Source: Minisyncoccia bacterium (GTDB lineage Bacteria; Patescibacteriota; Minisyncoccia; Phycocordibacterales; UBA5272). From it: a stretch of DNA of 64,000 bases. The DNA is taken from assembly GCA_038256975.1 (NCBI GenBank), contig JBBSJU010000001.1, positions 59,087 to 123,086 on the forward strand, in the 5' to 3' direction. This document shows positions 2 through 37,401 of the stretch, one piece after another. Position 1 is the stretch's first letter; every line of letters begins with the position of its first letter. A program made the translations under genes and the position numbers. The notes under the pieces were generated by a model. That model did no database searches. It was not told the DNA's origin and was given only the letters and a program-made list of their open reading frames with translations.

Positions 2-1204
2 GTGACGCAGAAAGGAGGTGAGGATTGGATTGTAAAAGCAACTAAGGGTATTGATGATATACAAAATTTTATTTCTGAAGCTGGACCTGCGTATGTTGAA
101 GGTACTAAAGCGTATGATGAAAGTGAACAAGTTCAGAAAGAGGTTCGTGCAATTGCTAACAAGCTTTATAACAAGGATCTTGATTCTCAAGAATACAAAA
201 TTTTTGACACATGCAAACAATTGAACATTCGTTATTTTAATTTTGTAACCCAAAGACTCAGGTCATCTTTTGACAGCTTTATTTTTGAATCTGAAACAGG
301 ACCTATTGGTAAACAACTTGTTGAGGAAAATATTCCCAATGTTTTTATACAAAGCGAAGGTGCCATTATTTTTGATGGGGAGGCACGAGGTCTGCATACA
401 CGAGTCTTTATAAACAAAGACGGTAATCCGACCTACGAAGCAAAAGATCTTGGACTTTTGTCTTTAAAATTTTCACGTTTTAATCCTGAGCTTTCCATTT
501 TTGTTACTGATCATGAACAGGGCCCATATTTTAAAGTTGTTGGAACTGCGGCAGGGGAGATACATAAAGAGTGGCAAGAAAAAACAGTTCACCTCACTCA
601 TGGACGAATGACATTTAAGGGTGCCAAAATGTCTTCGCGTCTTGGTGGTGTACCTACTGCGGAAGAAGTTTTAAATACTATTAAAGAGGTTGCAAAAGAA
701 AAGTTTACTGAACGGAGTATTGGAATGGATACAGATGCATTTGCAGACATGGTTGCTATTGCCGCACTTAAATTCTCGATTTTAAAAGTTGCACCTGGAA
801 AGCCAGTGAATTTTGATCCAGAAGAAGCGCTTTCCTTTGAAGGCGATTCTGGCCCATACATTCAGTACACTTACGTGCGTACTCGAGCACTTCTTGAAAA
901 AGGGGAGGCTTCAGGAATGCACCCGCAATTAGCAAAGGAATATATTACAACAGACCTTGAAAGAATGTTATATCGATTCGAAGAAGTTGCTCTTCAGGCC
1001 GCGCAAGAATATGCACCGCACCATATCGCACACCACTTACTTCTTCTTGCCCAAGCATTCAATAGTTGGTATGCAGCAAATAAAGTGATTGATGAGAGCA
1101 ACAAAGAACTTTCTGCCCATCGTTTGGCTGTTACGAAAGCAACTGGAACGGTACTTAAAAATGGTCTCTACCTCCTTGGAATTCAAACCCCAGAGCGAAT
1201 GTAA
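2..1204 (+). CDS. argS: arginine--tRNA ligase, C-terminal portion (5' end lies outside the window)
   Basis: Anticodon-binding (DALR-type) region; ends ...LLGIQTPERM, the characteristic ArgRS C-terminal Met. ORF is open to the window start. Confidence 0.8.
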   Translation: MTQKGGEDWIVKATKGIDDIQNFISEAGPAYVEGTKAYDESEQVQKEVRAIANKLYNKDLDSQEYKIFDTCKQLNIRYFNFVTQRLRSSFDSFIFESETGPIGKQLVEENIPNVFIQSEGAIIFDGEARGLHTRVFINKDGNPTYEAKDLGLLSLKFSRFNPELSIFVTDHEQGPYFKVVGTAAGEIHKEWQEKTVHLTHGRMTFKGAKMSSRLGGVPTAEEVLNTIKEVAKEKFTERSIGMDTDAFADMVAIAALKFSILKVAPGKPVNFDPEEALSFEGDSGPYIQYTYVRTRALLEKGEASGMHPQLAKEYITTDLERMLYRFEEVALQAAQEYAPHHIAHHLLLLAQAFNSWYAANKVIDESNKELSAHRLAVTKATGTVLKNGLYLLGIQTPERM

Positions 1205-1246
1205 GGCATTTTTTCTGGCCTCGGGCTCTATGTTACACTGGACATT

Positions 1247-4200
1247 ATGAGTGAAAAATCAGAACTTGTTACACCAAAAAAGTCGATAGCCGAAAAGGAG
1301 CTCGACGTTCTACAGTTCTGGCAAGAAAACAAGATTTTTGAAAAAAGCCTTGAAAAACCAGGAGGAGCAATTGCCAAACAAAACTTCACTTTTTATGATG
1401 GCCCACCATTTGCAACCGGCGTACCGCACCATGGGCATCTTCTCACAGGGACAATTAAAGACCTTATTCCTCGTTACAAGACGATGCAAGGTGAGTATGT
1501 GCGTCGTGTGTGGGGTTGGGATTGTCATGGTTTGCCAATTGAAAATCTTATTGAGAAAGAGTTTAATTTGAATCACAAAAAAGAAATTGAAGAGTTTGGT
1601 TTGGGTAAGTTTAATCAAGCATGTTTCGAGAGAGTGCTTCTCTATGAAAAAGATTGGAAAAAAGTAGTTCCTCGTATGGGGCGATGGGTGGACATGGAGC
1701 GTGCATACAAAACAATGGACGCGACCTATACGGAGAGTATTTGGTGGTCATGGAAGCAATTGTATGAAAAAAAGTTGGCGTACGAGGGATATAAAATAAT
1801 GCAAATATGTCCACGTTGTGAGACGACACTTGCGCAGAGTGAAGTAGCCCAAGGATATAAAGATGTGACAGATATTTCAGTGACGGCAAAGTTTGAATTA
1901 GTTGACCCGTCTGCGCAGGCAGGTGAACCAGGAACTTTTTTACTTGCGTGGACAACAACACCGTGGACGCTTCCAGGGAATACTGCGCTTGCTCTTAATA
2001 CTGAGGCAATATATGCATACGTTCAGCATGAAGGTTCACTGTATGTTGTGGCAGAAGAAAGACTTGAAAATGTTTTCAAGGAGCTTATATATGAAAAAGT
2101 AAAAACAGTGAAAGGTAAAGATCTTGTTGGTAAATCATATAAACCAGTATTTCCTTACTACATAGATACTTCACTTGATAATAAAGAAAATATATATAAA
2201 GTGTGGGCGGGAGACTTTGTGACTTTAGATACAGGAACGGGAATTGTGCACATTGCCCCAGCTTTTGGAGCTGACGACATGAATCTTGCAAAGGTAAACA
2301 AAATCCCTGTTATTCAACATGTATCAATGAGTGGGCAATTTACTAAAGAAGTTATTGATTTTCCAGAATTGTATGTAAAAAAGTTTGGAGACACACAGTC
2401 AACGGATATCGAGATTGTAAAATATCTCGCGCATCAGGGCAAATTATTTGCAAAAGAAAAACTCGTTCACTCATACCCACACTGTTGGCGATGTGACACA
2501 CCCCTTTTAAACTACGCAACTTCTTCGTGGTTTGTGGATGTTCCAAAAATTAAAGACAAGCTTATTGAGGCAAACAAGGGAGTTACGTGGGTACCGGAAC
2601 ATATTAAAGAAGGTCGTTTTGGAAAGTGGCTCGAAAATGCACACGAATGGGCGGTGTCACGATCACGTTATTGGGGCGCACCTATTCCTGTGTGGAAGTC
2701 CGAAGATGGTGATGTAAAGGTTATTGGAAGTTTTGCAGAAATGCGTGAGTACATGCCGAAAGCGAAGAACATATATATGGGTCTTCGGCATGGAGAGGCA
2801 AATTCAAATGTTACAAACACTCTTGATTCACTTGATGATCAGGAAAATCATTTGACAGAAAAGGGTAAGGAACAGATTGTGGCTGCTGCTAAAGAGCTAA
2901 AGGGTTCTGGTGTCACTAAAATAATTTCCTCACCCTTCTTGCGAACTCAAGAAACAGCTCAAATCTTGAGTGATATTCTCGGGGTTTCTTTCGAGGTTGA
3001 TGACCGATTAAAGGAAATTAATGTAGGTGTTTGGAATCGAAAGACGATAACTGATTTGTACGCACAAAACCCTGAGTTTCAAGAGAATTTAGACTATGCA
3101 CCAGATGGGGGGGAAAGTCACAGAGATTCTCGGACTCGTGCGATGAAGGTTCTATTTGACTGCGAAAAGAAATATGAAGGAGAAACAATCTTGATCGTGA
3201 CTCATGGTGGACCAATCGGTATGCTTGTGACTGGCGCACAGCTTATGAGTGATACCGAAACGCATAATTTCTTTACCAAAGACTCTCATGCCGATAAGCA
3301 TGGAAGATGTCTTGGGCACGGTAAGGTATATGATATTAACTTCAAACCATTTCCAAATCGAAATGGCGTACTTGATGTGCACCGTCCGTTTATCGACGAG
3401 GTCAAACTTACTATTGATGGAAAAGAATACACACGAGTTCCGTATGTATTCGACTGCTGGTACGAGTCGGGGTCAATGCCATATGCTGAAATTCACTATC
3501 CGTTCGAAAATGAAGTGCTGTTTAAAAATAGGTTTCCTGCAGACTGGATTGGTGAAGGTTTAGATCAGACACGCGGATGGTTTTATTCTTTGATGGTTCT
3601 AGGTGTCGCCCTTTTTGACAAAGCTCCTTACAGAAATGTGATTGTAAATGGTCTTGTAATGGCTGCCGATGGGCAAAAGGTAAGTAAGAGCAAGAAAAAC
3701 TTCACTGACCCAATGGAACTCGTAGAAAGGTATGGCGCTGATAGTATGAGACTGTATTTGGTATCAAGCCCGCTTGTACAAGCAGAAAATTCAAATTTCG
3801 TAGACAAAGATTTAGAAGAAATGCATCGAAGAATATTTGTACGTCTTGAAAATGTACTTGCATTTTATGAGATGTTTAAGGGAACAACTAGTACTCGGAT
3901 AGATCCATACAAGTCTCAGAACATGCTTGATATGTGGATGTTAAGTAGACTCAATCAAACTTTGAGTCAGACAACGTCTGGACTTGATGCAAATATGCTT
4001 GATGTGGCATCGCGGCCTTTCGACGGTTTTATTGATGACCTTTCCGTTTGGTATGTGCGTCGAAGTCGAGAACGATTAAAGGGGGACACTGGTGAGGAGG
4101 ATAGAATTGCGGCACTTTCTACCTTTGAATATGTCTTGTTGCAATTTGCAAAAATGTTTGCGCCATTTGCACCATTTGTTTCAGAGCGAGTATACAAGGC

Positions 4201-4741
4201 GGTTGGAGGAGAAAAGGAAAGCGTGCATCTTGAAAGTTGGGGAGAGGTAGGTGAGATAAAGGTTGAGATTGTTGAAGAAATGAAAAAAGTTAGAGACGTG
4301 GTTTCTAAAGGACTCGATGTTCGTGTTAAAAATGCGATTAAGGTTCGCCAGCCACTCTCACTCCTTACAACAGGAATAAAAATTGCAGAGCAGTATCTTG
4401 GTCTTATTCAAGATGAAGTGAATGTAAAACAGGTTACTTTCGATGAATCTCTTGGAGATATTGTGACACTGGATCTTTCCATTACTCCAGAATTAAAAAA
4501 AGAAGGTGATACCCGAGAACTTATTCGAGCAATACAAGATTTGCGTAAAAATAATGGACTCACACCAAATGATACACCGGCACTTTTTTACTCAGGAAAT
4601 GAAGAGGTGAAGTTGTTTGTTGAAAGTATTACGGACGCACTTACTCAGGCGTGCTTACTTTCAGAGATTACATACAAAGATTCTATAGAGAGTGAAGAAA
4701 TAAAAGTAGGTGAGTATCAGATGAAACTTAATTTGGCATAG
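1247..4741 (+). CDS. ileS: isoleucine--tRNA ligase (eukaryote-like type) carrying an internal histidine-phosphatase domain insertion
   Basis: HIGH motif (PHHGHLLTG), KMSKS motif (KVSKSKKN), CP1 editing region, WAVSRSRYWGAPIP and FDCWYESGSMPYA blocks; 1164 aa. Confidence 0.9.
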   Translation: MSEKSELVTPKKSIAEKELDVLQFWQENKIFEKSLEKPGGAIAKQNFTFYDGPPFATGVPHHGHLLTGTIKDLIPRYKTMQGEYVRRVWGWDCHGLPIENLIEKEFNLNHKKEIEEFGLGKFNQACFERVLLYEKDWKKVVPRMGRWVDMERAYKTMDATYTESIWWSWKQLYEKKLAYEGYKIMQICPRCETTLAQSEVAQGYKDVTDISVTAKFELVDPSAQAGEPGTFLLAWTTTPWTLPGNTALALNTEAIYAYVQHEGSLYVVAEERLENVFKELIYEKVKTVKGKDLVGKSYKPVFPYYIDTSLDNKENIYKVWAGDFVTLDTGTGIVHIAPAFGADDMNLAKVNKIPVIQHVSMSGQFTKEVIDFPELYVKKFGDTQSTDIEIVKYLAHQGKLFAKEKLVHSYPHCWRCDTPLLNYATSSWFVDVPKIKDKLIEANKGVTWVPEHIKEGRFGKWLENAHEWAVSRSRYWGAPIPVWKSEDGDVKVIGSFAEMREYMPKAKNIYMGLRHGEANSNVTNTLDSLDDQENHLTEKGKEQIVAAAKELKGSGVTKIISSPFLRTQETAQILSDILGVSFEVDDRLKEINVGVWNRKTITDLYAQNPEFQENLDYAPDGGESHRDSRTRAMKVLFDCEKKYEGETILIVTHGGPIGMLVTGAQLMSDTETHNFFTKDSHADKHGRCLGHGKVYDINFKPFPNRNGVLDVHRPFIDEVKLTIDGKEYTRVPYVFDCWYESGSMPYAEIHYPFENEVLFKNRFPADWIGEGLDQTRGWFYSLMVLGVALFDKAPYRNVIVNGLVMAADGQKVSKSKKNFTDPMELVERYGADSMRLYLVSSPLVQAENSNFVDKDLEEMHRRIFVRLENVLAFYEMFKGTTSTRIDPYKSQNMLDMWMLSRLNQTLSQTTSGLDANMLDVASRPFDGFIDDLSVWYVRRSRERLKGDTGEEDRIAALSTFEYVLLQFAKMFAPFAPFVSERVYKAVGGEKESVHLESWGEVGEIKVEIVEEMKKVRDVVSKGLDVRVKNAIKVRQPLSLLTTGIKIAEQYLGLIQDEVNVKQVTFDESLGDIVTLDLSITPELKKEGDTRELIRAIQDLRKNNGLTPNDTPALFYSGNEEVKLFVESITDALTQACLLSEITYKDSIESEEIKVGEYQMKLNLA
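2777..3360 (+). other. histidine phosphatase (phosphoglycerate-mutase superfamily) domain embedded in ileS, ~195 aa
   Basis: YMGLRHGEANSN (RHG catalytic motif) ... ILIVTHGGPIG (second His motif). It sits between the IleRS blocks VIGSFAEM and VLDVHRPFIDEV, where canonical IleRS has only ~40 aa. Confidence 0.6.
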
Positions 4742-4746
4742 TTTTT

Positions 4747-5319
4747 GTGAGCTATCATCACTACACAACCGAAGGCGTAATTCTTAAACGAGAAGATCGT
4801 GGGGAAAATGATGCGGTCTATGTTGTCTTTACTGAAACACTCGGGCTCATCGCTGCACACGCAACAGGTATACGGCTTTTGAAATCAAAACTACGTTTTG
4901 CGCTCCAGGTAGGAAATAAGGTTCGTATTACTCTTGTACGCGGCAAGGCTTTGTGGAGAATTACAACCTGTGCATTGCTTACACCATTGCCAACATCTAT
5001 TCAAGCAACGTTTCCGCGCGTGTATAAGCTTTTACGAACGTGTATTGTTTTTGATGAGCCGCTCCCATTTGTCTACGAACACATACGAGCACTTGTTTCA
5101 CTTACCGAAGATGTCTACCAAGACAAGCGTCTCTTTCGCACCGCGGAGACACTCATAACAGCTCGCTTGCTCGCAACCATGGGTATGCTCGATCAAGTAC
5201 ACACTGGTGAATTTGATGAAATTTCGCCACTATCAGCATCATTTTGTGTCTCGTATCAAGCAAGAGGTGAGGCTTTGCTTCACCATATCAAAACACGGCT
5301 TGGTGAGAGCGTTCTCTAG
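4747..5319 (+). CDS. recO: DNA repair protein RecO-like (short form)
   Basis: N-terminal OB-fold pattern TEGVILKREDRGENDAVYVVFTETLGLIAAHATG typical of RecO; 190 aa, shorter than typical. Confidence 0.5.
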   Translation: MSYHHYTTEGVILKREDRGENDAVYVVFTETLGLIAAHATGIRLLKSKLRFALQVGNKVRITLVRGKALWRITTCALLTPLPTSIQATFPRVYKLLRTCIVFDEPLPFVYEHIRALVSLTEDVYQDKRLFRTAETLITARLLATMGMLDQVHTGEFDEISPLSASFCVSYQARGEALLHHIKTRLGESVL

Positions 5320-7256
5320 TGTTCTTTGCGGTATACTGTCTGTATATGGCACCAGAGGATAAAAGTTCTAAACTCGAAGAAATACAGGAATCCTTATATG
5401 ATTCTACCCAAGCGCCAAAAAGCAACGTGCGCCGTATTATTCATGAACGTGAATTTGATGTTCCCGAAGGTTGGACTGGTGCCGACGATCAAGAGTCTCT
5501 TTTGAACGAAATTCCTGCTGAAGAGCGAGTGAATCATTCAAAAAAGATTCCTATTCTTGTACTGATTCTCTCTCTTGTTTTGTGTATAGCGGCGGGAGTA
5601 TTTGCATGGTACCGACTGAGTGGAGAGTCATCTGCAGTGTCTCAAAATCTCATCGCATTAGAATCTCAAGCGCCAGGCTTTATTGATGGGGGAGAAGAGT
5701 TTGATTATATTGTATCGCTTTCGAATCAGAACACCACAGAGTTGCAGCTTGTTGATCTTGAGGTCTCTTATCCGCAAGGAGTTGAAGACATTGCTACCTC
5801 TCGAATTGTAACAACGAAAGATGTTGGTACGGTTCTTCCAAATACAGTTGTTCAAGAAAAGTTCCCACTCACACTTTACGGTGTTCCAGGTACTACCAAG
5901 CCAATTACTACAACTTTAAGATATAGTGTTCCTGGATCAACGGCCACATTTGAAAAAAAAGAAACAAAAGTTGTAGAAATAAAATCATCTCCTCTTACGC
6001 TTACGGTGGATTCTTTAAAAGAGGTTACTCCAGGACAGATCATGAAGGTTAAGGTGCGTATCGAATCTACTCGAGGTAAAACAATTCAAAGCTCTCTCCT
6101 CAAGCTTACATATCCAACAGGATTTGAATTTGTGAGTGCGGATGTTGTACCAACTACAGGTAATAATGTTTGGGATTTGGGCGTACTTACTCCCGGGGTT
6201 GTGCGTGAAATTACTGTCTCTGGTATTGCGCGTGGTGAGGATGGAGAATCAAGGGCGATTCGTGCACAGATTGGCTCAAAAGATGCCTCTGGAATTGCTA
6301 TCGCGTCACTTTTTGCAGAATCTAATCTTTCCTATACGCTTGTAAAGCCATTTTTACAGACAGACATTTTGGTGGCAAATGTAAAAGCGGCGACACATGT
6401 AGTTTCTTCTGGTGCAGATGTCTCTGTTTTTGTCTCCTATAAAAACAATGTCGATAAAGATCTTCAAAATGCAGAAATCGCACTTACTTTAAACGGTGAT
6501 GCAATTATGGAAGAAACTGTCCGCGCAGATGGCGGTTTTTACGATTCACGAACAAATACCGTGACGTGGACAAGGTCTACAGTACGGGAACTTGCAAATC
6601 TTGAGCCAGGCGCGATAGGGAGACTCTCTGTTGTATTTAAAACAAAAAGCTCTATCTCGCTTGATACCAATGAAGAAATAAAGCTAGACGTAAGTGCAAA
6701 AGCTCGACGGGTAGGAGAAAGTCAGCTTGCTGAAACGGTGGTTAGCTCACAGAGCACACTTTTGCGAGTTGTTACTCGGGTTGCTCTTGTTGCAGAAAGT
6801 GCGCGTAGTGGAGGATCATTCTCTGTTTTCGGACCTGTACCTCCAAAAGGAGAACAAGAAACATCGTATGTGCTCATTTCTCAAATTAAAAATACCGTTA
6901 ACCCGATCGATCGAGCAGAGGTGAAATTCAAGCTTCCATTTAATGTTCGGTTTATTGCGGGTGAGGCGACCCAGGGAACGGTAACCTATAGTGAGTTTGA
7001 TAAACAGATTAAGTGGACCGCGGGGAGTGTGGTGAAATCAAGTGGAGGTGTTGATCCAGTGCTGTATGTGCATGTTGCGGTGATACCGTCACTTGTCGAT
7101 GTTGGGAAAAGTTCTACTCTTGCCACAGACTTTACTCTGACCGCAGTTGATATATTTACCAAGACATCACTGAGTGCAAAAGGCCCGAGTGTTATTACGA
7201 CAAAGTTTCGAATTAGTGATGGTTTTAAGAAAGGGGACGATCTTGTTACTCAGTAG
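5319..7256 (+). CDS. membrane-anchored surface protein with DUF11-like conserved repeat domains
   Basis: Single TM helix (IPILVLILSLVLCIAAGVFAWY) after a short cytoplasmic N-terminus. Beta-rich repeats with LTYPTGFEFVSAD...WDLGVLTPG and KLPFNVRFIAGEAT...WTAGSV patterns. Confidence 0.55.
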   Translation: MFFAVYCLYMAPEDKSSKLEEIQESLYDSTQAPKSNVRRIIHEREFDVPEGWTGADDQESLLNEIPAEERVNHSKKIPILVLILSLVLCIAAGVFAWYRLSGESSAVSQNLIALESQAPGFIDGGEEFDYIVSLSNQNTTELQLVDLEVSYPQGVEDIATSRIVTTKDVGTVLPNTVVQEKFPLTLYGVPGTTKPITTTLRYSVPGSTATFEKKETKVVEIKSSPLTLTVDSLKEVTPGQIMKVKVRIESTRGKTIQSSLLKLTYPTGFEFVSADVVPTTGNNVWDLGVLTPGVVREITVSGIARGEDGESRAIRAQIGSKDASGIAIASLFAESNLSYTLVKPFLQTDILVANVKAATHVVSSGADVSVFVSYKNNVDKDLQNAEIALTLNGDAIMEETVRADGGFYDSRTNTVTWTRSTVRELANLEPGAIGRLSVVFKTKSSISLDTNEEIKLDVSAKARRVGESQLAETVVSSQSTLLRVVTRVALVAESARSGGSFSVFGPVPPKGEQETSYVLISQIKNTVNPIDRAEVKFKLPFNVRFIAGEATQGTVTYSEFDKQIKWTAGSVVKSSGGVDPVLYVHVAVIPSLVDVGKSSTLATDFTLTAVDIFTKTSLSAKGPSVITTKFRISDGFKKGDDLVTQ

Positions 7257-7311
7257 GGTGGAGTAAAGGATGGAGCTTATATTTTCAGACTATTTTTGCT
7301 AGAGTATAAAA

Positions 7312-8694
7312 ATGGAATCAAAAGACAAGATGGAGGCTATTATCTCGCTCTGCAAACGCCGAGGGTTTGTGTTTCAAGGCTCTGAAATATATGGGGGACT
7401 TGCTGGAGTATATGACTTTGGTCCACGTGGGGTTGAGGTGTTAAATAATATTAAACAATCCTGGTGGAAAGCGAATGTTTACAACAAGGAAAACTATTTT
7501 GGTCTTGATAGTGGAATGTTTAAGCACCCAAGAACATGGGAAGCAAGTGGCCATGTGGGAGGATTTAGCGATCCGCTTGCCGAATGTCGAAAATGTAATA
7601 CACGTGTTCGTGTTGATAAAGAATTGGCGTCTATTGGTGTTGCGGCTGATGAAAAAATGTCTGAGCAAAAAATCAATGAACTTTTTGACCAGAATCGAGA
7701 CAAAATTAAGTGTCCAACATGTGGTGAGAAAAATTTCAGTCAAGTGAAATCATTCAATCTTTTGGTTCAATCTAATCTTGGAGACTTCACATCTGAAGGT
7801 AATGAACCAGTCTATTTACCGGGAGAGGCGTGTCAGGGGATATACCTTAATTATAAAAACATTGTTAATTCAATGAACCCCAAGATGCCATTTGGTGTTG
7901 CTCAAATAGGTAAGGCTTTTCGTAACGAAATCTCGCCAAGAAATTTTCTCTTCCGTACACGGGAATTTGAACAAGCTGATACTCAGTACTTCATCAAACC
8001 AAATGAGAATAAAGAGGCGTATGAGACAATTAAAAAAGATCGTTTCGATTGGTATCTTTCGCTTGGTATACAAGAAAATAAACTTCGTTTTAAACAGCAC
8101 GAAAACCTCGTTTTCTATGCTAAAGATGCTTGGGATATCGAGTATGAATTTCCTAGTGGGTTTGATGAAATAGAAGGTATTCATGATCGCACTGATTATG
8201 ACCTCTCTCAACATCAAAAGTTTTCTGGAGTTGATCTAAACTATATTGATCAAGAAACAGGAGAAAAATATATACCGTGGATTCTGGAGACATCAATGGG
8301 TTTGGGGCGCGTATTTCTTGCGGTTCTTTGCGATGCGTATCACGAAGATGAAATGGATGGAGAAACACGTGTGGTTTTAAAACTTAAACCAGAACTCGCT
8401 CCAGTTTTATGTGCCGTATCGCCACTCCTTAAAAACAAACCAGAACTCGTTGCAAAGGCTCGCGAGGTGTATGCAAGTTTGAAAAAAGAATTTGGTCGCG
8501 TTATGTGGGATGACAACTCAAACATCGGTAAGCGATATCGTCGTCAAGATGAAATTGGTACACCATTTTGTATTACGGTTGATTTTGAAACATTAGAAGG
8601 GGACACAAAGGACACGGTAACAGTGCGTATGCGAGATGATGCAACACAGACGCGAGTTGCGATTGAAGATCTCTCTCATTTCTTACAAAAATAA
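7312..8694 (+). CDS. glyQS: glycine--tRNA ligase (dimeric class II form)
   Basis: N-terminus MEAIISLCKRRGFVFQGSEIYGGLAGVYDFGPRGVE and class II motifs; 460 aa. Confidence 0.9.
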   Translation: MESKDKMEAIISLCKRRGFVFQGSEIYGGLAGVYDFGPRGVEVLNNIKQSWWKANVYNKENYFGLDSGMFKHPRTWEASGHVGGFSDPLAECRKCNTRVRVDKELASIGVAADEKMSEQKINELFDQNRDKIKCPTCGEKNFSQVKSFNLLVQSNLGDFTSEGNEPVYLPGEACQGIYLNYKNIVNSMNPKMPFGVAQIGKAFRNEISPRNFLFRTREFEQADTQYFIKPNENKEAYETIKKDRFDWYLSLGIQENKLRFKQHENLVFYAKDAWDIEYEFPSGFDEIEGIHDRTDYDLSQHQKFSGVDLNYIDQETGEKYIPWILETSMGLGRVFLAVLCDAYHEDEMDGETRVVLKLKPELAPVLCAVSPLLKNKPELVAKAREVYASLKKEFGRVMWDDNSNIGKRYRRQDEIGTPFCITVDFETLEGDTKDTVTVRMRDDATQTRVAIEDLSHFLQK

Positions 8695-8697
8695 TTC

Positions 8698-9960
8698 ATG
8701 AAACATATTAAAAAAGTACTCCCTAATGGGCTTCGGGTTATTTTGGTGCCTAAAAAAGAATCTACGAGCGTTCTTGTGTCTGTAACGGTGCAAGCAGGTT
8801 CGAACTACGAATCAGAAAAAGATAGCGGCATCTCACACTTTCTAGAACACATGTGTTTTAAGGGTACAACAAGGCGTCCACAATCAACTGGGATTTCTCG
8901 AGAATTGGACTCTATTGGTGCAATGTACAATGCTTCTACAAATCGGTATCAAACAGAATACTATGTTCGGGTGCGTCCAAAACATCTCACACAAGTGTTT
9001 GATATTGTCTCCGATCTTTATTTAAATCCACTTCTTCCTGTGGAGGAAATAGAAAAAGAAAAGGGGGTTGTGTGTGATGAAATAGATATGTATGCGGATG
9101 ATCCAAGTAGTGTTGCTTCGCAATTAATGCTTGAGAAACTCTTTGGTGACCAAGCGGCTGGGCGAGATGTGGCGGGCACAAAGAAACATGTACAATCATT
9201 TACCCGTGAACAAATAAAGAAATATCGCGACACGCATTATGTAGCAGGAAAAACTATTGTCACGCTTGCGGGAAACTTTGATCCCAAAAAAGCGTTGCAA
9301 CTCGTGCGAAAAGCTTTCGGCAATCTTCCAAAGGTTAAAAAGATTTCACCACAAAAATATACTGCGCCAAAAAATACCACGAAACTTTTTGTACAAACAA
9401 AAGATTCGGAACAAACTCATGTGCGAATGGCTTTTACAAGTGTGCCGTCTAAACATAAAGATCGGCGCATTGCATCACTTCTGGGAGAAATTCTTGGCGG
9501 AACCATGTCGTCACGTCTTTTTGTGCGACTTCGACAGAAGATGGGAGTGAGTTATTATAATTACGCATCCCAAGCCTCTTTGCTTCAATACGGCTACTTC
9601 ACTCTTGGTGCAGGGGTTTATAAAGATCACGTACAAAAAACTGTTGAGGCGTTATATGAAGAATGCTTGAAAATGACCCAAGAACCGGTTAGTGACGAAG
9701 AGTTGGATCGCGCAAAAGAGACGTATGTGAATCCAATGCTTATGTCACTTGAAATGCCTACAACCATTGCCGGGTATGTTACTTCGTTTGAGATTTTTGA
9801 AGAACCATACATCACTATGCAAGAATGGGAAAAGAAAATGAGGGCCATTTCTAAGAAAGATATTATGCGTGTTGCTAAAACAATTTTCAAAAAAGAAAAT
9901 ATGATAGTCGTCGTTGTTGGTCCTCATGAGCAAAAGGTGCTGACTATTCCCACAAAATGA
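8698..9960 (+). CDS. M16 family zinc peptidase (pitrilysin-like)
   Basis: Inverted zinc-binding motif HFLEHMCFKGT (HxxEH) near the N-terminus; 420 aa. Confidence 0.8.
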   Translation: MKHIKKVLPNGLRVILVPKKESTSVLVSVTVQAGSNYESEKDSGISHFLEHMCFKGTTRRPQSTGISRELDSIGAMYNASTNRYQTEYYVRVRPKHLTQVFDIVSDLYLNPLLPVEEIEKEKGVVCDEIDMYADDPSSVASQLMLEKLFGDQAAGRDVAGTKKHVQSFTREQIKKYRDTHYVAGKTIVTLAGNFDPKKALQLVRKAFGNLPKVKKISPQKYTAPKNTTKLFVQTKDSEQTHVRMAFTSVPSKHKDRRIASLLGEILGGTMSSRLFVRLRQKMGVSYYNYASQASLLQYGYFTLGAGVYKDHVQKTVEALYEECLKMTQEPVSDEELDRAKETYVNPMLMSLEMPTTIAGYVTSFEIFEEPYITMQEWEKKMRAISKKDIMRVAKTIFKKENMIVVVVGPHEQKVLTIPTK

Positions 9961-10012
9961 TAGCTCGTGGTGTATAATTGCATCTCAATAAAAATCGCGT
10001 ACAATCAGGGGT

Positions 10013-11101
10013 ATGAACCCATCTGAAAAAGCACTGACCGTAAACGTTAGTTTTGCCACTATCATCAAGGCGGTAGTGTTTTTGCTTTTTATTTATGCGC
10101 TTTTCCTTCTCAAAGAGTTGGTTATTATTGTGCTTGCCTCTATTGTTATTGCGTCTGCCATTGAGCCTGTGACGAGACTTCTTGAGCGTATCCGCATCCC
10201 TCGGCCTTTTGCTGTTGGAATAATCTTTTCGGCCCTTATTGCCATTGTGACGGCTGTCATCTATCTTTTTGTGCCAGTGCTTATTGAGCAATTTTCAGGA
10301 TTTATTCTCACTATTCCAGATTTTTTGTTACGCTTGAGCGCCTTCACACAAGGAAATACTTACTTTACTGAACTTGATATTTTAGGGGACATACAAGCTC
10401 AATTACAAAATGTCGATATTATTTCTTCAGTAAAAGCGGCACTCTTTGGCGTCGGTGGGGGCGTGATACATACCGCAGGTGCACTCTTTAACGGAGTTAC
10501 TCAACTTGTACTAATTACCGTGATATCTTTTTATTTTGCCGTTCAGGAAAAAGGAATCGAAAATTTTCTACGTGTGATCATTCCGCTCAAAAATGAAGCA
10601 TACGCGATTGATCTCTGGAAACGTTCTCAGGCAAAAATAGGGAAGTGGATGCAGGGACAAATGATACTTGCGCTTATCATGGGCACAATCGCATTCTTCG
10701 GCCTCTGGGTAATCGGACTCCGAGAATACGCACTCTTTCTGGCTATTTTAATTTCAATCACAGAACTTATTCCGCTTTTCGGTCCAATTCTCGCTATGAT
10801 CCCGGCTATTTTCCTCGGTTTTTCTTTTGGGGGAGCAGAAATAGGACTCTTGGTGACTGGCTTTTATATTATCCTTCAGCAGTTCGAGAATCATATCCTT
10901 GTTCCGTTGGTGAATAAGCAGTTAGTTGGCGTGCCACCACTTATGGTTATCCTTGCGCTTCTAATCGGAGCAAGTCTTCTTGGTTTTTGGGGTCTTATTC
11001 TTGCGGTGCCAATTGCAGCTGCAATACTTGAGTTTACACGAGATGTACTTACTCGTAAGGACAAGGCTCTCACAATGGCAAATATTTTAAGCGAACAATA
11101 A
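10013..11101 (+). CDS. AI-2E family transporter (PerM / UPF0118)
   Basis: 8 predicted TM helices with an architecture typical of the AI-2E/PerM family; 362 aa. Confidence 0.7.
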   Translation: MNPSEKALTVNVSFATIIKAVVFLLFIYALFLLKELVIIVLASIVIASAIEPVTRLLERIRIPRPFAVGIIFSALIAIVTAVIYLFVPVLIEQFSGFILTIPDFLLRLSAFTQGNTYFTELDILGDIQAQLQNVDIISSVKAALFGVGGGVIHTAGALFNGVTQLVLITVISFYFAVQEKGIENFLRVIIPLKNEAYAIDLWKRSQAKIGKWMQGQMILALIMGTIAFFGLWVIGLREYALFLAILISITELIPLFGPILAMIPAIFLGFSFGGAEIGLLVTGFYIILQQFENHILVPLVNKQLVGVPPLMVILALLIGASLLGFWGLILAVPIAAAILEFTRDVLTRKDKALTMANILSEQ

Positions 11102-11106
11102 TTTTT

Positions 11107-12564
11107 GTGAAAAAACCTTTTTACATTACAACAACCCTTCCATACGTTAACAGTGATCCGCATATTGGGTTTGCCATGGAAATTATCCGTGCCGATGTCG
11201 TTGCGCGATTTAAGCGTATTCAAGGTCATGACGTATTTTTTAATACTGGTACTGATGAACACGGCGCGAAGCTCTACGAAGCTGCACAGAAAGAAGGTGT
11301 AACTCCGCAGCAATATGTTGATGGCTACGCAGCACGGTTTAAGGAACTTGTATCTGTTTTGAATATTTCTGCGAATAACTTTATTCGTACCACAGATGCG
11401 CATCATGTTTTAGCTGCCCAAGAATTTTGGAAAAGAGCTGATGCAAATGGCGATATTTATAAAAAGAATTACAAAACAAAATATTGTATCGGGTGTGAAT
11501 TAGAAAAGACGGACAGTGAACTTGTAGAGGGGAAGTGTCCAATCCATCCCAATCGTGACATTGAAATCCGCGAGGAAGAAAATTACTTTTTCCGCTATTC
11601 AAAATATGGTCAAAAGTTACTTGATCTTTATGCTGCCCGACCAGATTTTGTTCTTCCTGAATCTCGTTTGAATGAAATGAAGGCGTTCATTGAGCGGGGT
11701 CTTGAAGATTTTAGTATTTCTCGCCTCGCGTCAAAAATGTCATGGGGTATTCCGGTTCCAGGAGATGAAGAGCATGTAATGTATGTGTGGTTTGATGCAC
11801 TCGTAAACTACGTTGCCGCAGTTGGGTGGCCTCATAACATGGGGGAATTTGAAAAGTGGTGGAATGAGTCAGGTGGCGTGGTGCAATATTGTGGAAAAGA
11901 CAATACGCGTCAGCAGTCAGCAATGTGGCAAGCAATGCTTATGTCTGTTGGAATAATCCCATCACAAAAGATAATCATTAATGGTTTTATCATGGGTGCT
12001 GATGGACAAAAGATGAGTAAGTCAATTGGAAATGTAGTTAACCCTTTTGAGATTGTTGATGAGTTCAAAGATCTTGCTCATGCACCAGAAGAGGTGGTTC
12101 GTTTTGTGGTCACGCATGATTTTTCTTCTTTCGAAGATAGCCCAGCTTCGCGTGAGTATATTCGTAATTCATACTCAGCACAGCTTGCAAACGGTGTCGG
12201 TAATCTTACAAGTCGCATCATGAAGCTGTCAGAGACATATCTTACTGAACCTGTTCACGAACAAGCAACCCATTTTGCATCTGAATACATAGATGCATTT
12301 GAAAGGTACGATCTTCGCGACGCTATTGCGTATTGTATGCAAATTGTAAAACGTCTCGATACTCGTATCCAGGAAACAGAACCATTTAAAGTAGTGAAAG
12401 TTGAATCTGAAAAAGGAAAAGCGCTCATTACAGCTTTGGTGTACGACCTCGCTATTCTTGCGAGACACCTTGAACCATTTCTACCAAAAACATCTGCGGA
12501 AATATTGTCTTGTATCCGTACAAACAAAACGCCAAGCAAGCCTCTCTTTAACCGCCTTCCATAA
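11107..12564 (+). CDS. metG: methionine--tRNA ligase (short form lacking C-terminal tRNA-binding domain)
   Basis: PYVNSDPHIGFAMEI (HIGH-type) and KMSKSIGN (KMSKS); GTG start; 485 aa. Confidence 0.9.
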   Translation: MKKPFYITTTLPYVNSDPHIGFAMEIIRADVVARFKRIQGHDVFFNTGTDEHGAKLYEAAQKEGVTPQQYVDGYAARFKELVSVLNISANNFIRTTDAHHVLAAQEFWKRADANGDIYKKNYKTKYCIGCELEKTDSELVEGKCPIHPNRDIEIREEENYFFRYSKYGQKLLDLYAARPDFVLPESRLNEMKAFIERGLEDFSISRLASKMSWGIPVPGDEEHVMYVWFDALVNYVAAVGWPHNMGEFEKWWNESGGVVQYCGKDNTRQQSAMWQAMLMSVGIIPSQKIIINGFIMGADGQKMSKSIGNVVNPFEIVDEFKDLAHAPEEVVRFVVTHDFSSFEDSPASREYIRNSYSAQLANGVGNLTSRIMKLSETYLTEPVHEQATHFASEYIDAFERYDLRDAIAYCMQIVKRLDTRIQETEPFKVVKVESEKGKALITALVYDLAILARHLEPFLPKTSAEILSCIRTNKTPSKPLFNRLP

Positions 12565-13896: not shown

Positions 13897-16629
13897 ATGA
13901 ATCCATCGTTTCTTCCGCAGCAATTTAAAAATCCTGAAGAAGAGATTGCCTATTTGCGTTCAAAACTTTTTGAGCGTGAGACACAAATGAAGGAAACTGG
14001 CGGGCAATTATCTGCTCCTGAGATTATGAAAGTGGAAGTGGATAGGTATCAGCAGATTCCTGTCGAAAAAGCTCTCACTCCACAATACGCTCTTTCACAG
14101 GGAGAGGTGGGGGGTATTGTGCTTAATCTTACGCCGCGCTCAACGGATGAAAAAGTAAGCGAGCTTTTGGGAATCTTTTTAGATAAAGGGTTACGGAATA
14201 CCCTGAGCGTTCTTGAACAAATGAAAAATCCAAGCCTCGACGACGACTTTCATCGCTTCCTTGTTCAATACATTGCTTCAGGACAAGACCCAAAAGATGT
14301 TCGCAAGGTGCCAGAGGAAATGAAGGGAGTGGACATGGTTCTTTACGAAATCTCGCTTCCCGCAGAAGAGACGAGTGATAAAGCGAAGTCGTTTAAAGAA
14401 CTTGTGGCGTCAATGGAGCAGTTCTATGCTGGGATGCTTGCTATTTCAGATGGCAAGGATAATTCAAATAAAAATTATTTCTCTCTTGAAATTGCACTTT
14501 CAGCCGAAAGTGATGAGATTATTTTTTATGCAGCAGTGCCACGCGAACGTCGGGAGCTTTTTGAAAAGCAGATCATTGGTGTATATCCAAAAGCTCGTCT
14601 CAAAGAACAGGTGAATGATTATAATATTTTTAATAATGAGGGTGCCTCATATGGGATGACGGCAGAATTTACCGAAAGTGCGGCGCTCCCCATAAAAACA
14701 TACGAGCAATTTGAGGCCGATCCTGTACAAGTTATCTTGAGCTCGTTCTCAAAACTCAAACACACTGGTGAGGGTGCGGCAGTGCAGTTTCTTATTCGTC
14801 CAGCAGGCGCAAAGTTCATTGAACGCTACGGAAAGATGCTCGATAAAATAAAGAAGGGTATGACGCTCAAAGAAGCAGTGAAGGAAGAAAGTACTGCGTA
14901 TTTGGTTGGCAAAAAGACGCTTAATTTTGTTTTTGGTGGCGAAAAAAAGAAAGATGAGAAAGTGACTATTTCACATGTTGAAGAAGATGCAACCCGTCTG
15001 ATTGTGGACAAAATAAAAAGTACCATCGTGGAAGTAAACATACGTGTCATTGCTTCAGCAGAGACAGTCGAGCGAGCACAAGGGATTATTAAAGATGTTA
15101 TTTCTGGATTTCACCAGTTCACTGAAACAAAAGGCAATCAGCTGACGTTTGATGTCAAAAAAGCTAAAGCGAACACTCGGTTATTCCATGACTTCAGTTA
15201 CCGTATTTTCCGAGAAAATGAAGTGTTGCCGCTTAACTTAAAAGAGCTGACAACTCTTGCGCACTTTCCAAGCTCTACAGTTGGTTCAAATCAGCTTAAG
15301 ACTGCTCAAGCAGCACAAGCGCCTGCGCCACTTGATTTACCAGTGTCAGGAACGCTTATCGGTGTCAACAAGTATCGGAGCACAGAGACAAAGATTTTCA
15401 TGACTCCTGATGATCGGGTGCGTCACATGTATGTTGTAGGACAGACAGGAACAGGTAAGACAAGTATCTTGAAAAACATGATTATTCAGGATATTCAAAA
15501 TGGTGATGGTTGCTGTTTTATAGATCCACACGGTACGGATGTGCAAGATATCTTAGCAAGTATCCCTCCAGAGCGTGCAAAAGATGTGGTGTATTTTGAC
15601 CCAGCATACACAGCACGGCCGATGGGACTCAATATGCTTGAATACGATGTTCGTTTTCCTGAACAGAAGACATTTGTAGTTAATGAGCTCTTGAGTATTT
15701 TCAACAAACTTTTTGATATGAAGACTGCTGGCGGGCCGGCATTTGAACAATACTTCCGCAATTCAGCTCTTCTAGTGATGGAACATCCAGAAAGCGGAAA
15801 TACCCTTCTTGATATTTCACGTGTGCTCTCTGATAAAAATTATCGAGCCTATAAGCTTTCTAAATGCCAAAATCCACTTGTGTCGCAGTTTTGGGCAAAC
15901 GCTGAAAAGACAACAGGTGATCAAGGTTTACAGAACTATGTTCCGTATATCACTAATAAATTCGACAATTTTCTTTCAAATGAAATCATGCGACCGGTAG
16001 TTGCTCAAGAGCACTCTGCTTTCAATTTCCGCGATATCATGGATCAGAAAAAGATACTCCTCGTCAATCTTTCGAAAGGTCGTCTCGGTGACATTAATGC
16101 GAATCTCATTGGACTTATTTTGGTTGGGAAGATCCAAATGGCCGCACTTTCTCGTGTGGATATGTACGGACAAAAGATGAACGATTTTTATCTCTATATC
16201 GATGAGTTTCAAAATGTCACGACCGATTCCATCGAGTCTATTCTCTCAGAAGCCCGAAAGTATCGTTTGAGTCTCAACTTAGCTCATCAGTACATTAGCC
16301 AAATCCCTGAAAATATTAAAGGTGCCGTGTTTGGAAACGTGGGTTCCATGGCAGTCTTTCGGGTTGGTGTCGAGGATGCTGAATTTTTGGCAAAACAATT
16401 TGAGCCGATTTTTACCGCGAATGATATTTTGAAAATTGAAAACTATAATGCGTATGTCAAAATGCTTTCTCGGGGTATTCCTCAGAAACCATTTAATATT
16501 AGTATTCTACCTCCAGCGAAGGGTAATCTAGAAATTGTAGAGCAACTTAAACAGCTTTCATATATGACATTTGGGCGAGACAGAACAGAGGTTGAAGCGG
16601 AAATCGCTCAAAAGTACACGCCCGTCTAG
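13897..16629 (+). CDS. TraD/TrwB/VirD4-like (type IV coupling protein-type, DUF87 / TraM-recognition) P-loop ATPase with a ~490-aa uncharacterised soluble N-terminal domain
   Basis: Walker A VVGQTGTGKTS followed 17 aa later by FIDPHG (as in the TrwB/TraD GTGKS...DPNG arrangement). Walker B YLYIDEFQNV. Then ARKYRLSLNLAHQYISQIPENI... (TraG/TraD C-terminal pattern). No TM segment; 910 aa. Confidence 0.65.
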   Translation: MNPSFLPQQFKNPEEEIAYLRSKLFERETQMKETGGQLSAPEIMKVEVDRYQQIPVEKALTPQYALSQGEVGGIVLNLTPRSTDEKVSELLGIFLDKGLRNTLSVLEQMKNPSLDDDFHRFLVQYIASGQDPKDVRKVPEEMKGVDMVLYEISLPAEETSDKAKSFKELVASMEQFYAGMLAISDGKDNSNKNYFSLEIALSAESDEIIFYAAVPRERRELFEKQIIGVYPKARLKEQVNDYNIFNNEGASYGMTAEFTESAALPIKTYEQFEADPVQVILSSFSKLKHTGEGAAVQFLIRPAGAKFIERYGKMLDKIKKGMTLKEAVKEESTAYLVGKKTLNFVFGGEKKKDEKVTISHVEEDATRLIVDKIKSTIVEVNIRVIASAETVERAQGIIKDVISGFHQFTETKGNQLTFDVKKAKANTRLFHDFSYRIFRENEVLPLNLKELTTLAHFPSSTVGSNQLKTAQAAQAPAPLDLPVSGTLIGVNKYRSTETKIFMTPDDRVRHMYVVGQTGTGKTSILKNMIIQDIQNGDGCCFIDPHGTDVQDILASIPPERAKDVVYFDPAYTARPMGLNMLEYDVRFPEQKTFVVNELLSIFNKLFDMKTAGGPAFEQYFRNSALLVMEHPESGNTLLDISRVLSDKNYRAYKLSKCQNPLVSQFWANAEKTTGDQGLQNYVPYITNKFDNFLSNEIMRPVVAQEHSAFNFRDIMDQKKILLVNLSKGRLGDINANLIGLILVGKIQMAALSRVDMYGQKMNDFYLYIDEFQNVTTDSIESILSEARKYRLSLNLAHQYISQIPENIKGAVFGNVGSMAVFRVGVEDAEFLAKQFEPIFTANDILKIENYNAYVKMLSRGIPQKPFNISILPPAKGNLEIVEQLKQLSYMTFGRDRTEVEAEIAQKYTPV

Positions 16630-16652: not shown

Positions 16653-17255
16653 ATGACACACCCAAAGAAAGAGCGTACATTTGTAATTTTAAAGCCAGAC
16701 GCTATTCAGCGTGGACTTGTGGGAGATATTCTCTCCAGATTTGAAAAGTCAGGACTCAAAACAGTCGCAATGAAAATGGTTGTTGCAACCGAAGAGCAGT
16801 GTTTTGCGCACTATAATAAGGATGACGCATGGTTTGAAAAGAAGGGGGCAAAGGTAGTTGAAAATATGAAATCACGTGGTGTAGAGCCAACAAAGCCTGC
16901 CATTGAGTATGGTAAAGATATTGTACGGGCACTCGCAAAGTACATGACAGCTGGCCCATCAATTTGTCTTGTATTTGAAGGAAATAAATCCGTCGCTGTG
17001 GTGACAAAGCTTGTAGGTGGCACGGAGCCAACAACATCTGATGTGGGAACTATCCGTGGCGACCTTACTTTAGATTCATACGATGCTGCAAATTTTGATG
17101 CACGCGCAGTACGTAACCTTGCACATTGTTCAGAGAGTCCTGAAGAGGCGCTACGAGAAATTCCTATTTGGTTTAAAGAAAATGAAATCATTTCGTACAA
17201 TCATATTCAAGACGCTATTCTCTACGACGTGAATCTTGACGGCATTCTTGAATAA
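16653..17255 (+). CDS. ndk: nucleoside diphosphate kinase (extended C-terminus)
   Basis: ERTFVILKPDAIQRGLVGDILSRFEKSGL and the active-site His context NLAHCSES (NxxHgSDS). Confidence 0.85.
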   Translation: MTHPKKERTFVILKPDAIQRGLVGDILSRFEKSGLKTVAMKMVVATEEQCFAHYNKDDAWFEKKGAKVVENMKSRGVEPTKPAIEYGKDIVRALAKYMTAGPSICLVFEGNKSVAVVTKLVGGTEPTTSDVGTIRGDLTLDSYDAANFDARAVRNLAHCSESPEEALREIPIWFKENEIISYNHIQDAILYDVNLDGILE

Positions 17256-17902: not shown

Positions 17903-18289
17903 ATGTCCAAAGCTCTCTATGGAAGCACCTTCTTGTCTGTAGGCGTTCTCTCTTTTTTGCACTGGTATGCACTCAAGCAGCATCTCTATTTTTTTTATCC
18001 AACACTTGATATCTTCATGCATCTTTTTGGCGGGTTTACTGTTGGACTCTGTGCGGTGATAGCGATTTCCTTTTTCTTTAGAAACCTACCACCTAAAGTC
18101 CTCTACGCTCTTGTATTTTTATTTGTGCTCTCAAGCGGGGCATTGTGGGAAGTGTTTGAATTATATTTAAACTTTGAATTTAATTTAAAAAATTTTAGCC
18201 TGCAAGATACGATGGCAGATCTTGTAAATGATTTAGTAGGTGGGACAATTGCCCTGTATCTAGCCTACAAAAAACACTGGTATGCCTAG
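17903..18289 (+). CDS. hypothetical integral membrane protein
   Basis: 4 predicted TM helices; 128 aa. Confidence 0.4.
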   Translation: MSKALYGSTFLSVGVLSFLHWYALKQHLYFFYPTLDIFMHLFGGFTVGLCAVIAISFFFRNLPPKVLYALVFLFVLSSGALWEVFELYLNFEFNLKNFSLQDTMADLVNDLVGGTIALYLAYKKHWYA

Positions 18290-19664: not shown

Positions 19665-19671
19665 AGCAAAC

Positions 19672-20247
19672 ATGACTATACATAAAGAAACCTCGATCGT
19701 GCTTTGCGTCTCTGGAGCAGCTGACATTGGGCACTGTGGCATTGATGCGCGCGAAAAGGCAATAGAGCTTGGGAAAGAGATTGGTAGAAAAGGTGCGGTG
19801 TTGGTAACGGGCGCGACTACAGGGTTTCCTTTGTGGGCAGCAATGGGAACAAAGTCGGAAGGAGGCATTTCAATTGGACTTTCTCCTGCGGCCAATGTAA
19901 GAGAGCACAAAGAGGTGTATAAGCTTCCGCCTGATTATATGGACTTGGTAGTCTATACAGGGTTTGGTTTTCCTGGACGCGATTTGTTACTCATTCGTTC
20001 ATGCGAGGCGGTACTCATTGGTTGTGGACGTATTGGCACTATTCACGAGTTTACGATTGCGTTTGAGGACAATAAACCGATTGGAGTTTTGCAAGGCGAT
20101 TGGGCCACAGATGAAGTTATTCAAAATATTATTGCAAAAGGTAATCGTCCTAATCCAAAGATTGTTTTCGATACAGACCCAAAACGTTTGGTGGAAAAAG
20201 TGATAGAGCTTGTTAAAGTCGATCGTTTAGCGGCAGGGGTTATTTAG
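19672..20247 (+). CDS. TIGR00725 / LOG-like Rossmann-fold protein
   Basis: IVLCVSGAADIGHCGIDAREKAIELGKEIGRKGAVLVTGATTG matches the SLOG/LOG-family N-terminal nucleotide-binding pattern. Confidence 0.5.
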   Translation: MTIHKETSIVLCVSGAADIGHCGIDAREKAIELGKEIGRKGAVLVTGATTGFPLWAAMGTKSEGGISIGLSPAANVREHKEVYKLPPDYMDLVVYTGFGFPGRDLLLIRSCEAVLIGCGRIGTIHEFTIAFEDNKPIGVLQGDWATDEVIQNIIAKGNRPNPKIVFDTDPKRLVEKVIELVKVDRLAAGVI

Positions 20248-34673: not shown

Positions 34674-34715
<42 letters not shown>

Positions 34716-35406: not shown

Positions 35407-35549
35407 GCTTGTAGATTTCATACAGGATTTTGTGTGACATAGTGTTAGTGGATAGCACGTCACAAAATAGTGGAGGCTTCCGTTCGATTCGGAACTCACA
35501 CAAATTCTGTCACAACTGCATAGTTGTGTCCTGTATGAAATCTATAAGC
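35407..35549 (+). other. ~140-nt intervening/expansion stem-loop in 23S at the helix-45 position
   Basis: GCTTGTAGATTTCATACAGG ... CCTGTATGAAATCTATAAGC is a 20-bp stem. It replaces the short E. coli hairpin GCGGCAGCGACGCUUAUGCGUUG between CACCGAAGCUG and GGUAGGGGAGCGUUC. Confidence 0.5.

Positions 35550-36305: not shown

Positions 36306-36346
<41 letters not shown>

Positions 36347-37369: not shown

Positions 37370-37401
<32 letters not shown>

Follow-up and report, generated by a model that had tools for sequence, protein, structure and literature searches.

What is a complete phosphatase domain doing inside an essential aminoacyl-tRNA synthetase (aaRS)? The question is raised by a single gene, ileS, in a 64-kb stretch of DNA from a tiny-genome Minisyncoccia bacterium of the Patescibacteria (contig JBBSJU010000001.1), the whole of which is referred to here as the window. 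The gene (positions 1247-4741 on the + strand, as are all of its features given below) is one unbroken open reading frame (ORF) of 1164 amino acids (aa) plus a stop codon, and it encodes a type 2 (eukaryote-like) isoleucyl-tRNA synthetase (IleRS) in which a second enzyme domain, a histidine phosphatase (His_Phos), is nested. We find that this domain lies in connective peptide 3 (CP3) of the synthetase, that its catalytic residues are conserved among relatives, that the same type of domain recurs at other loops of IleRS in Patescibacteria, and that it has been lost repeatedly. The reading that we favor, with middling confidence, is that of a bifunctional type 2 IleRS (IleRS2) that would carry an autonomous small-molecule phosphatase on the enzyme surface.

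A complete histidine phosphatase domain within IleRS

Alignment of the protein to a hidden Markov model (HMM) built from 48 insert-free IleRS2 sequences delimits the inserted block to aa 508-708, or nucleotides (nt) 2768-3370, which differs by at most 10 nt at either end from the interval proposed in the first-pass annotation of this DNA (2777-3360). Pfam places His_Phos_1 (PF00300) at aa 513-672 with an E value of 1.7e-35 (122.9 bits against a gathering threshold of 21.7), and the complete domain of the phosphoglycerate mutase type that had been proposed is there with both of its signatures, an RHG motif at aa 514-516 (nt 2786-2794) and a THGG motif at aa 652-655 (nt 3200-3211). It was also correctly described as an in-frame internal insertion, neither a neighboring gene nor a terminal fusion: there is one ORF, and the IleRS halves on both sides align to the structure of Priestia megaterium IleRS2 (8C8V), query aa 10-491 with residues 6-465 and aa 709-1078 with residues 486-862. 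About 218 residues of the query stand in place of a connection of about 20 residues in 8C8V. In relatives, 29 to 56 aa separate WGxPxP from HRPxID when the insert is absent versus 200 to 246 aa when it is present, and in close homologues the length of the insert itself ranges from 199 to 208 aa.

The inserted domain is of the branch-1 (PhoE/GpgP-like) type, and its predicted catalytic set is complete. The RHG motif supplies R514, H515 (the predicted phospho-accepting nucleophile) and G516; R566 (nt 2942-2944), the second phosphate-binding arginine, lies in an SPxxRxxET motif at aa 562-570; E590 (nt 3014-3016) is the predicted general acid/base glutamate; and H653 (nt 3203-3205), the second catalytic histidine, is part of the THGG motif. 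Each of R514, H515, R566, E590 and H653 is kept in 119 of 119 close homologues, among which N521, E623, R631 and E640 are likewise invariant. In a more diverse set of embedded domains (101 domains from 50%-identity clusters), R514, H515 and H653 are found in all 101, R566 in 100 and E590 as either E or D in 99. The median identity among the 119 close homologues is 39% for the insert versus 59% for the remaining protein, and this combination of a diverged insert with invariant catalytic residues fits purifying selection on catalysis.

The structural models agree with this assignment. The isolated domain was modeled with a pLDDT of 93.2 and a pTM of 0.90, and in the full-length AlphaFold2 model (pLDDT of 85) most of the insert exceeds 90. 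The modeled domain has the alpha/beta fold with a cap that is seen in branch-1 members and can be superposed on the solved ones, and structure comparison indicates that it keeps the capped pocket of the small-molecule-phosphatase type. The closest structures are phosphatases rather than mutases, and the nearest solved relative by sequence is PhoE (E value of 9e-17). The insert is acidic to neutral, with an isoelectric point of 5.6 compared with a family median of 6.3. The nested domain is a complete PhoE/GpgP-like phosphomonoesterase domain that is very probably active.

A narrower functional label could not be attached. The top NCBIfam match of the insert is PRK07238, and the specific functions tried were all rejected on their cutoffs: cofactor-dependent phosphoglycerate mutase (dPGM; TIGR01258, 19 versus 81.7 bits; the archaeal NF038349, 89.9 versus 225), CobC (TIGR03162, 92.2 versus 162.9), PspA (NF045917, 63.2 versus 350) and SixA (TIGR00249, 40 versus 74.5), with GpmB and MutT1 also falling below their cutoffs. 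Comparison of the insert with the PADLOC-DB defense models returned no family at an E value of 0.01 or less.

The host synthetase and the point of insertion

The protein that surrounds the phosphatase is an IleRS by all measures applied. The ileS equivalog model TIGR00392 matches the ORF with 835.7 bits (cutoff, 621.4; E value of 4.6e-251), and the match is split into two stretches with a break at aa ~506. Pfam finds tRNA-synt_1, Anticodon_1 and DUF5915, with the catalytic domain split in two by His_Phos_1. Membership in type 2 is indicated by DUF5915 at aa 1011-1163, and no zinc finger family was matched by Pfam anywhere in the 1164 aa, the lack of a C-terminal zinc-binding domain being a trait of type 2. 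The ORF is also closer to P. megaterium IleRS2 (E value of 1e-212) than to Staphylococcus aureus IleRS1 (4e-91), and its best solved relatives are the P. megaterium structures 8C8V and 8C9D (E value of 1.3e-212; Foldseek TM of 0.80).

In the domain nomenclature of PMC7191050 and PMC7955072, the N-terminal part (nt 1247-2767, aa 1-507) comprises the N-terminal half of the Rossmann fold, the CP core, CP1, CP2, the CP2-3 linker and the first half of CP3. It holds the HIGH motif in the form HHGH (aa 61-64, nt 1427-1438) in the Rossmann N-half, the CP1 editing-domain motif WTTTPWTLPGN (aa 235-245), the linker motif RYWGAPIPVW (aa 474-483) and, in CP3, VIGSFAEMREY (aa 492-502). The C-terminal part (nt 3371-4738, aa 709-1164) resumes with the second half of CP3, marked by HRPFID (aa 712-717), and continues with the Rossmann C-half, which includes the segment FDCWYESGSMPYA (aa 735-747) and the KMSKS motif in the form KVSKS (aa 811-815, nt 3677-3691), followed by the anticodon-binding domain and the type 2 C-terminal domains (DUF5915). 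The HIGH, KMSKS and CP1 editing motifs are invariant or nearly so in 115 homologues. Judged by its sequence, the protein is the housekeeping IleRS2 of the organism, with synthetic and editing motifs intact, and it is predicted to be active in charging. Two specialized IleRS families were considered and rejected: the mupirocin resistance enzymes MupA and MupB (NF000257 and NF000258), which were matched with 655 and 734 bits against a cutoff of 1900, and the family of IleRS with a GNAT domain (NF040702), matched with 295.7 bits against a cutoff of 1999, the query having no GNAT match in Pfam.

The insert is flanked by VIGSFAEMREY on one side and LDVHRPFIDEV on the other, 3' of the RYWGAPIPVW linker and 5' of FDCWYESGS. 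In the structures of Candida (Ca) and yeast (Sc) IleRS, CP3 spans residues 473-534 and 459-526, respectively (PMC7191050, PMC7955072). The module is small, and IleRSs differ in its topology and its zinc content (PMC7191050); the CP2-3 linker ARDWNVSRNRYWG before it helps to form the tRNA-CCA/reveromycin pocket (PMC7955072). The first-pass annotation had placed the phosphatase inside the catalytic core and next to the active site. The first part of this description stands in terms of sequence, the insert being within the catalytic domain, but the point of insertion as mapped by alignment is the variable, peripheral CP3 connective peptide of the Rossmann-fold domain. Some relatives keep cysteines in CP3, and the query is without them.

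Distribution in Patescibacteria

The exact query protein is present in NCBI. From a collection of 5.8 billion proteins, the 120 best homologues (53 to 100% identity to the query) were taken, and every one of them combines PF00133 with PF00300; nearly all have lengths of ~1140 to 1200 aa, and the set draws on assemblies from NCBI, JGI, ENA and Logan. A HMMER scan of 1.84 billion representatives of 50%-identity clusters extended the picture: the phosphatase HMM is nested in IleRS in ~95 of the 150 best representatives, at overall identities down to 36 to 40%. Among the matches listed, 22 of 80 GTDB genome loci have the insert-bearing architecture. Members and loci bear names such as Candidatus Nomurabacteria, Pacebacteria, Kaiserbacteria, Yanofskybacteria and Spechtbacterales, and further Paceibacteria/Minisyncoccia, Peregrinibacteria and Peribacteria. 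The first-pass annotation had named an assembly chimera as what would overturn its claim, and this did not hold, given that hundreds of independent assemblies share the architecture. In base composition, the insert matches the remaining gene (GC content of 0.410 versus 0.404; 0.338 versus 0.333 at third codon positions), and no repeats were found flanking it.

The architecture is thus real and widespread across many related lineages, and it is seemingly undescribed, the sequences being public but labeled as IleRS alone. Literature searches directed at this architecture and at aaRSs with extra domains gave no published description of a His_Phos-bearing IleRS, and a 2026 preprint that catalogues the domain architectures of 96,219 IleRSs makes no mention of a phosphatase, in line with the earlier impression that this is not a described IleRS variant.

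Recurrence at other loops

Insertion sites were mapped by aligning the 150 representatives to an insert-free core HMM, and the insertions were found to cluster at discrete hot spots. At the site used in the query (site A), ~85 representatives have a His_Phos domain. A second site (site B), the loop after HYPFEN (query aa ~756-762), holds one in seven representatives (P0162, P0163, P0190, P0241, P0242, P0233 and P0262), and a third (site C), the loop that opens the anticodon-binding domain (query aa ~879-893), in another seven (P0137, P0190, P0219, P0227, P0228, P0242 and P0246). Three proteins have two copies, P0137 at sites A and C and both P0190 and P0242 at sites B and C, and IleRSs of ~1470 to 1491 aa from Peribacteria/Peregrinibacteria (L020, L021, L023 and L024) have a tandem pair of His_Phos domains at site A.

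Other enzyme domains are nested in frame at the same or neighboring loops (core-HMM columns 214, 247, 292, 484, 537 and 662), often together with His_Phos in one IleRS. They include MutT-like NUDIX domains (P0201, P0191, P0236 and P0239), GNAT domains (P0233, P0251 and P0262), a P-loop kinase (P0175) and a Ser_hydrolase domain (PF06821; P0228), and an IS200-type Y1 transposase domain is present in P0238. The IleRS of P0262 reaches 1859 aa. The patescibacterial IleRS appears to be an insertion hub.

Loss and decay of the insert

In a crude neighbor-joining tree of the IleRS core columns, insert-free IleRSs are interspersed many times among the insert-bearing ones. Three close relatives (P0126, P0133 and P0192) are insert free. 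In P0126, the closest neighbor of P0121 and the query, the domain has been cleanly deleted and the C-terminal junction IPKDETGNINLHKPYID is kept, and P0133 shares the ileS-recO synteny of the window. These insert-free relatives have a normal short CP3. In P0143, the domain is present in a decayed state, with RHG changed to LHG, the histidine of THG lost and an internal deletion. No free-standing His_Phos gene lies within 10 kb on either side of ileS in 82 loci; the contigs of P0133 and P0153 are short. On this sequence evidence, the phosphatase is evidently dispensable for IleRS, and its repeated loss or decay in lineages with an otherwise normal IleRS weakens the case for an obligatory link to aminoacylation chemistry.

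Possible functions of the nested domain

We favor an explanation of the locus as a bifunctional IleRS2. A complete phosphatase of the PhoE/GpgP type would have been inserted into the CP3 connective subdomain of an ordinary IleRS2 and would fold as an independent module on its surface, where it would hydrolyze a small phosphomonoester, be it a metabolite or a nucleotide, by the standard His_Phos mechanism. The phosphoryl group would pass to H515 with the help of R514, R566 and H653, and E590 would be the proton donor, while aminoacylation would take place as in an ordinary IleRS. Three surface loops of IleRS2 in Patescibacteria (CP3, the loop after HYPFEN and the start of the anticodon domain) would be permissive landing sites, and the small enzymes carried in them would be co-expressed with an essential gene. 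Activity of the phosphatase, a small-molecule substrate and the dispensability of the domain for tRNA charging are our inferences. An autonomous module acting on a small molecule is suggested because of the capped fold, the non-basic surface, the diverse unrelated domains carried by IleRS loops and the recurrent losses.

Several observations weigh against this explanation. That His_Phos is by far the commonest insert is hard to square with a purely passive passenger, and so are its recurrence at three IleRS loops and its duplication inside IleRS; the presence of the same domain type at three loops, sometimes in duplicate, strengthens some functional association with IleRS. Conservation extends to the junctions (K507, N508 and Y510 on the N side, P703 and G707 on the C side), which suggests a defined docking geometry. 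CP3 directly follows the CP2-3 linker, a part of the lining of the tRNA CCA pocket, and a position of the phosphatase near the tRNA 3' end is possible. The insert scores under every NCBIfam equivalog cutoff, and substrate specificity is therefore not transferable. The embedded His_Phos copies group apart from three outgroups, namely PhoE and two free-standing 216-aa proteins, the only ones returned by a word-index search with the site C domain of P0227, in a neighbor-joining tree that is crude and makes for a weak test; both of the trees behind our phylogenetic points are of this crude kind.

The alternative that survives best, possible if on balance unlikely, is that the phosphatase is a third active site functionally linked to aminoacylation, with a logic akin to that of the nested CP1 editing domain. 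In one version, it would act on nucleotides of the synthetic site (AMP, ADP, pyrophosphate, by-products of the diadenosine tetraphosphate [Ap4A] type or alarmones), and in another it would clear the tRNA 3' end of a 2'- or 3'-phosphate or, together with NUDIX, of a pyrophosphate that blocks charging. Ap4A stems chiefly from aaRSs, and toxSAS enzymes add pyrophosphate to the CCA end of tRNA. The same recurrence and duplication inside IleRS, and the same closeness of CP3 to the linker of the tRNA-CCA/reveromycin pocket, speak for coupling. The intact catalytic set is, moreover, retained across deep lineages of Patescibacteria, and some of the co-inserted domains are of a nucleotide or RNA-end type, namely the P-loop kinase of P0175 and the MutT-like NUDIX domains of P0201, P0236 and P0239. 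A pertinent precedent is mycobacterial MutT1, in which NUDIX and His_Phos are combined. However, the insert is repeatedly lost or decayed where IleRS is otherwise normal, site C, which opens the anticodon-binding domain, is presumably distant from the synthetic site, and the capped small-molecule pocket and the non-basic surface speak against tRNA binding. The GNAT, Ser_hydrolase and IS200 inserts are off any nucleotide theme, the PADLOC comparison gave no defense family, and the ArgRS, GlyRS and MetRS of the window do not have the domain.

The coupling idea can be broadened to a whole class of synthetase-embedded catalytic modules (His_Phos, NUDIX, P-loop kinase, GNAT and serine hydrolase) that would work in cis with aminoacylation, a proposal that we consider unlikely. 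Such a module could clear AMP, pyrophosphate or Ap4A, or it could heal blocked 3' ends of tRNA-Ile (3'-phosphate, pyrophosphate or N-acyl-aminoacyl). If true, it would be a third quality control or repair site in class I aaRSs, comparable in principle to CP1.

It is improbable that the nested domain is an otherwise missing dPGM, or another phosphatase of core metabolism, that has been overlooked inside ileS. Short archaeal dPGMs (~194 aa) are among the best NCBIfam matches of the insert (NF038349, E value of 1.9e-25), the lack of a free-standing His_Phos gene near ileS extends to the whole 64-kb window, and annotation gives the protein no other name than IleRS or "class I tRNA ligase family protein," under which such an enzyme would be hidden. 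The window contains no glycolysis genes. The scores are, however, far under the dPGM cutoffs given above (90 versus 225 bits for NF038349 and 19 versus 81.7 for TIGR01258), the nearest structures are phosphatases and not mutases, and an essential glycolytic step is unlikely to have been lost so often unless it was replaced in trans.

We give equally little credence to a ligand-sensing or structural module, in which binding of a phospho-metabolite or phosphorylation of H515 would tune IleRS or in which the domain would substitute for the zinc knuckle of CP3. CP3 is indeed variable among IleRSs, with zinc or without and with differing topologies, the query is without the CP3 cysteines, and conservation at the junctions suggests that the domain is oriented in a fixed way to the core. 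But a full and near-universal catalytic set that includes the acid/base glutamate exceeds what ligand binding needs, the whole domain decays when constraint is relaxed, as in P0143, and insert-free relatives keep a normal short CP3.

An artefact has almost no credibility left, although the window is probably metagenome assembled and the in-frame IS200 transposase domain of P0238 shows that mobile DNA can enter ileS: an assembly chimera or frameshifted pseudogene is ruled out by the frame that is unbroken over positions 1247-4741, by the sharing of the architecture among 120 of 120 best homologues from independent assemblies and 22 of 80 listed GTDB loci, by the tightly held length of 199 to 208 aa and by the gene-like, matching composition without flanking repeats, and an unspliced intein or intron ORF, which would be absent from the mature protein, by the lack of any Hint/intein or intron family match, with the full-length model above a pLDDT of 90 over most of the insert.

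Other features of the window

Four aaRS genes lie on one strand within 12.5 kb (window positions 2-12564), encoding ArgRS (truncated by the start of the window), IleRS, GlyRS and MetRS, and a foreign domain is present only in IleRS. Scattered among them are genes for an M16 peptidase, an AI-2E transporter and RecO, and the order is ArgRS-IleRS-RecO-...-GlyRS-...-MetRS. Directly 3' of recO, an ORF of 645 aa (5319-7256) has no Pfam match. Further along are a homologue of TraG/VirD4-like coupling proteins (910 aa; 13897-16629) and an RNase J-like gene of the beta-CASP/RMMBL type, after which comes a SLOG (LDcluster4) gene (18282-20247). Between these lies a nucleoside diphosphate kinase ORF (16653-17255) of 200 aa whose match to the Pfam NDK model (135 positions) is split in two; an extension or insertion therefore seems to be present, and this is perhaps another insert-prone protein of the genome.

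The 23S rRNA match (34188-37612) is 3425 nt long against a model of 2925 nt, which leaves ~500 nt of extra sequence in which neither an ORF longer than ~100 aa nor an Rfam intron family was detected. The interval from the 23S to the 5S gene contains tRNA-Ala(CGC) (37924-37999) and a second, weak tRNA-like match (38024-38099) that was given by Rfam only, with 38.4 bits, and missed by ARAGORN. The ORF at 38142-38612 overlaps the 5S gene (23S-5S region, 37924-38258) and is probably spurious. With its long 23S gene, tRNAs between 23S and 5S and housekeeping gene order, the window looks like that of a member of the Patescibacteria.

Relation to known enzymes and significance

The host protein is the same as bacterial IleRS2 (P. 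megaterium, 8C8U/8C8V/8C9D) and the yeast and Candida cytoplasmic IleRSs, with which it shares the HUP/Rossmann fold with HIGH and KMSKS, the CP core, CP1, CP2, CP3, the anticodon-binding domain and the type 2 C-terminal domains. In these solved IleRSs, CP3 is only a short beta-beta-alpha-alpha element or a zinc knuckle, whereas in the query it has ~200 extra residues that constitute a second enzyme. The solved phosphatases PhoE (Geobacillus stearothermophilus, 1EBB/1H2E), GpgP (Mycobacterium tuberculosis, 4PZ9/6S2Q) and iPSP1 (4IJ5) are free-standing, in contrast to the nested domain, and the sequence identity of the insert to them is just 23 to 29%.

The aaRSs rank with the most thoroughly studied enzymes. 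To our knowledge, the nested catalytic domains described in them, including those of class Ia, are all editing domains. The CP1 editing domain of IleRS, ValRS and LeuRS, which is intact in the query, provides the precedent of a Rossmann-fold loop that harbors an entire hydrolytic domain. CP1 is universal, acts on mischarged tRNA and is needed for fidelity; the His_Phos insert, in contrast, is lineage restricted, belongs to an unrelated superfamily and has been repeatedly lost. A curated IleRS variant with an extra enzyme domain exists in NF040702 ("ileS_w_GNAT"), but that domain is of a different family. The domain combinations in some relatives resemble known multidomain proteins, with NUDIX and His_Phos in P0201 and P0236 recalling mycobacterial MutT1 and the P-loop kinase and His_Phos in P0175 recalling PFK-2/FBPase-2. 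MutT1 is an end-to-end fusion, as are PFK-2/FBPase-2 and Rv2228c (RNase H plus a CobC-like phosphatase). All three join functionally related partners end to end, whereas the patescibacterial domains are nested separately in the loops of an aaRS.

The patescibacterial ileS genes amount to a natural large-scale experiment of domain insertion into an essential enzyme, one that reveals which loops of IleRS are tolerant of additional domains. The protein is of the size of a soluble enzyme and is amenable to standard assays. If the module acts on tRNA ends or on nucleotides derived from the adenylate, it would represent a new kind of synthetase-linked quality control. More generally, the nested phosphatase would be a hidden enzymatic activity that goes unseen when the puzzling minimal metabolism of these organisms is reconstructed.

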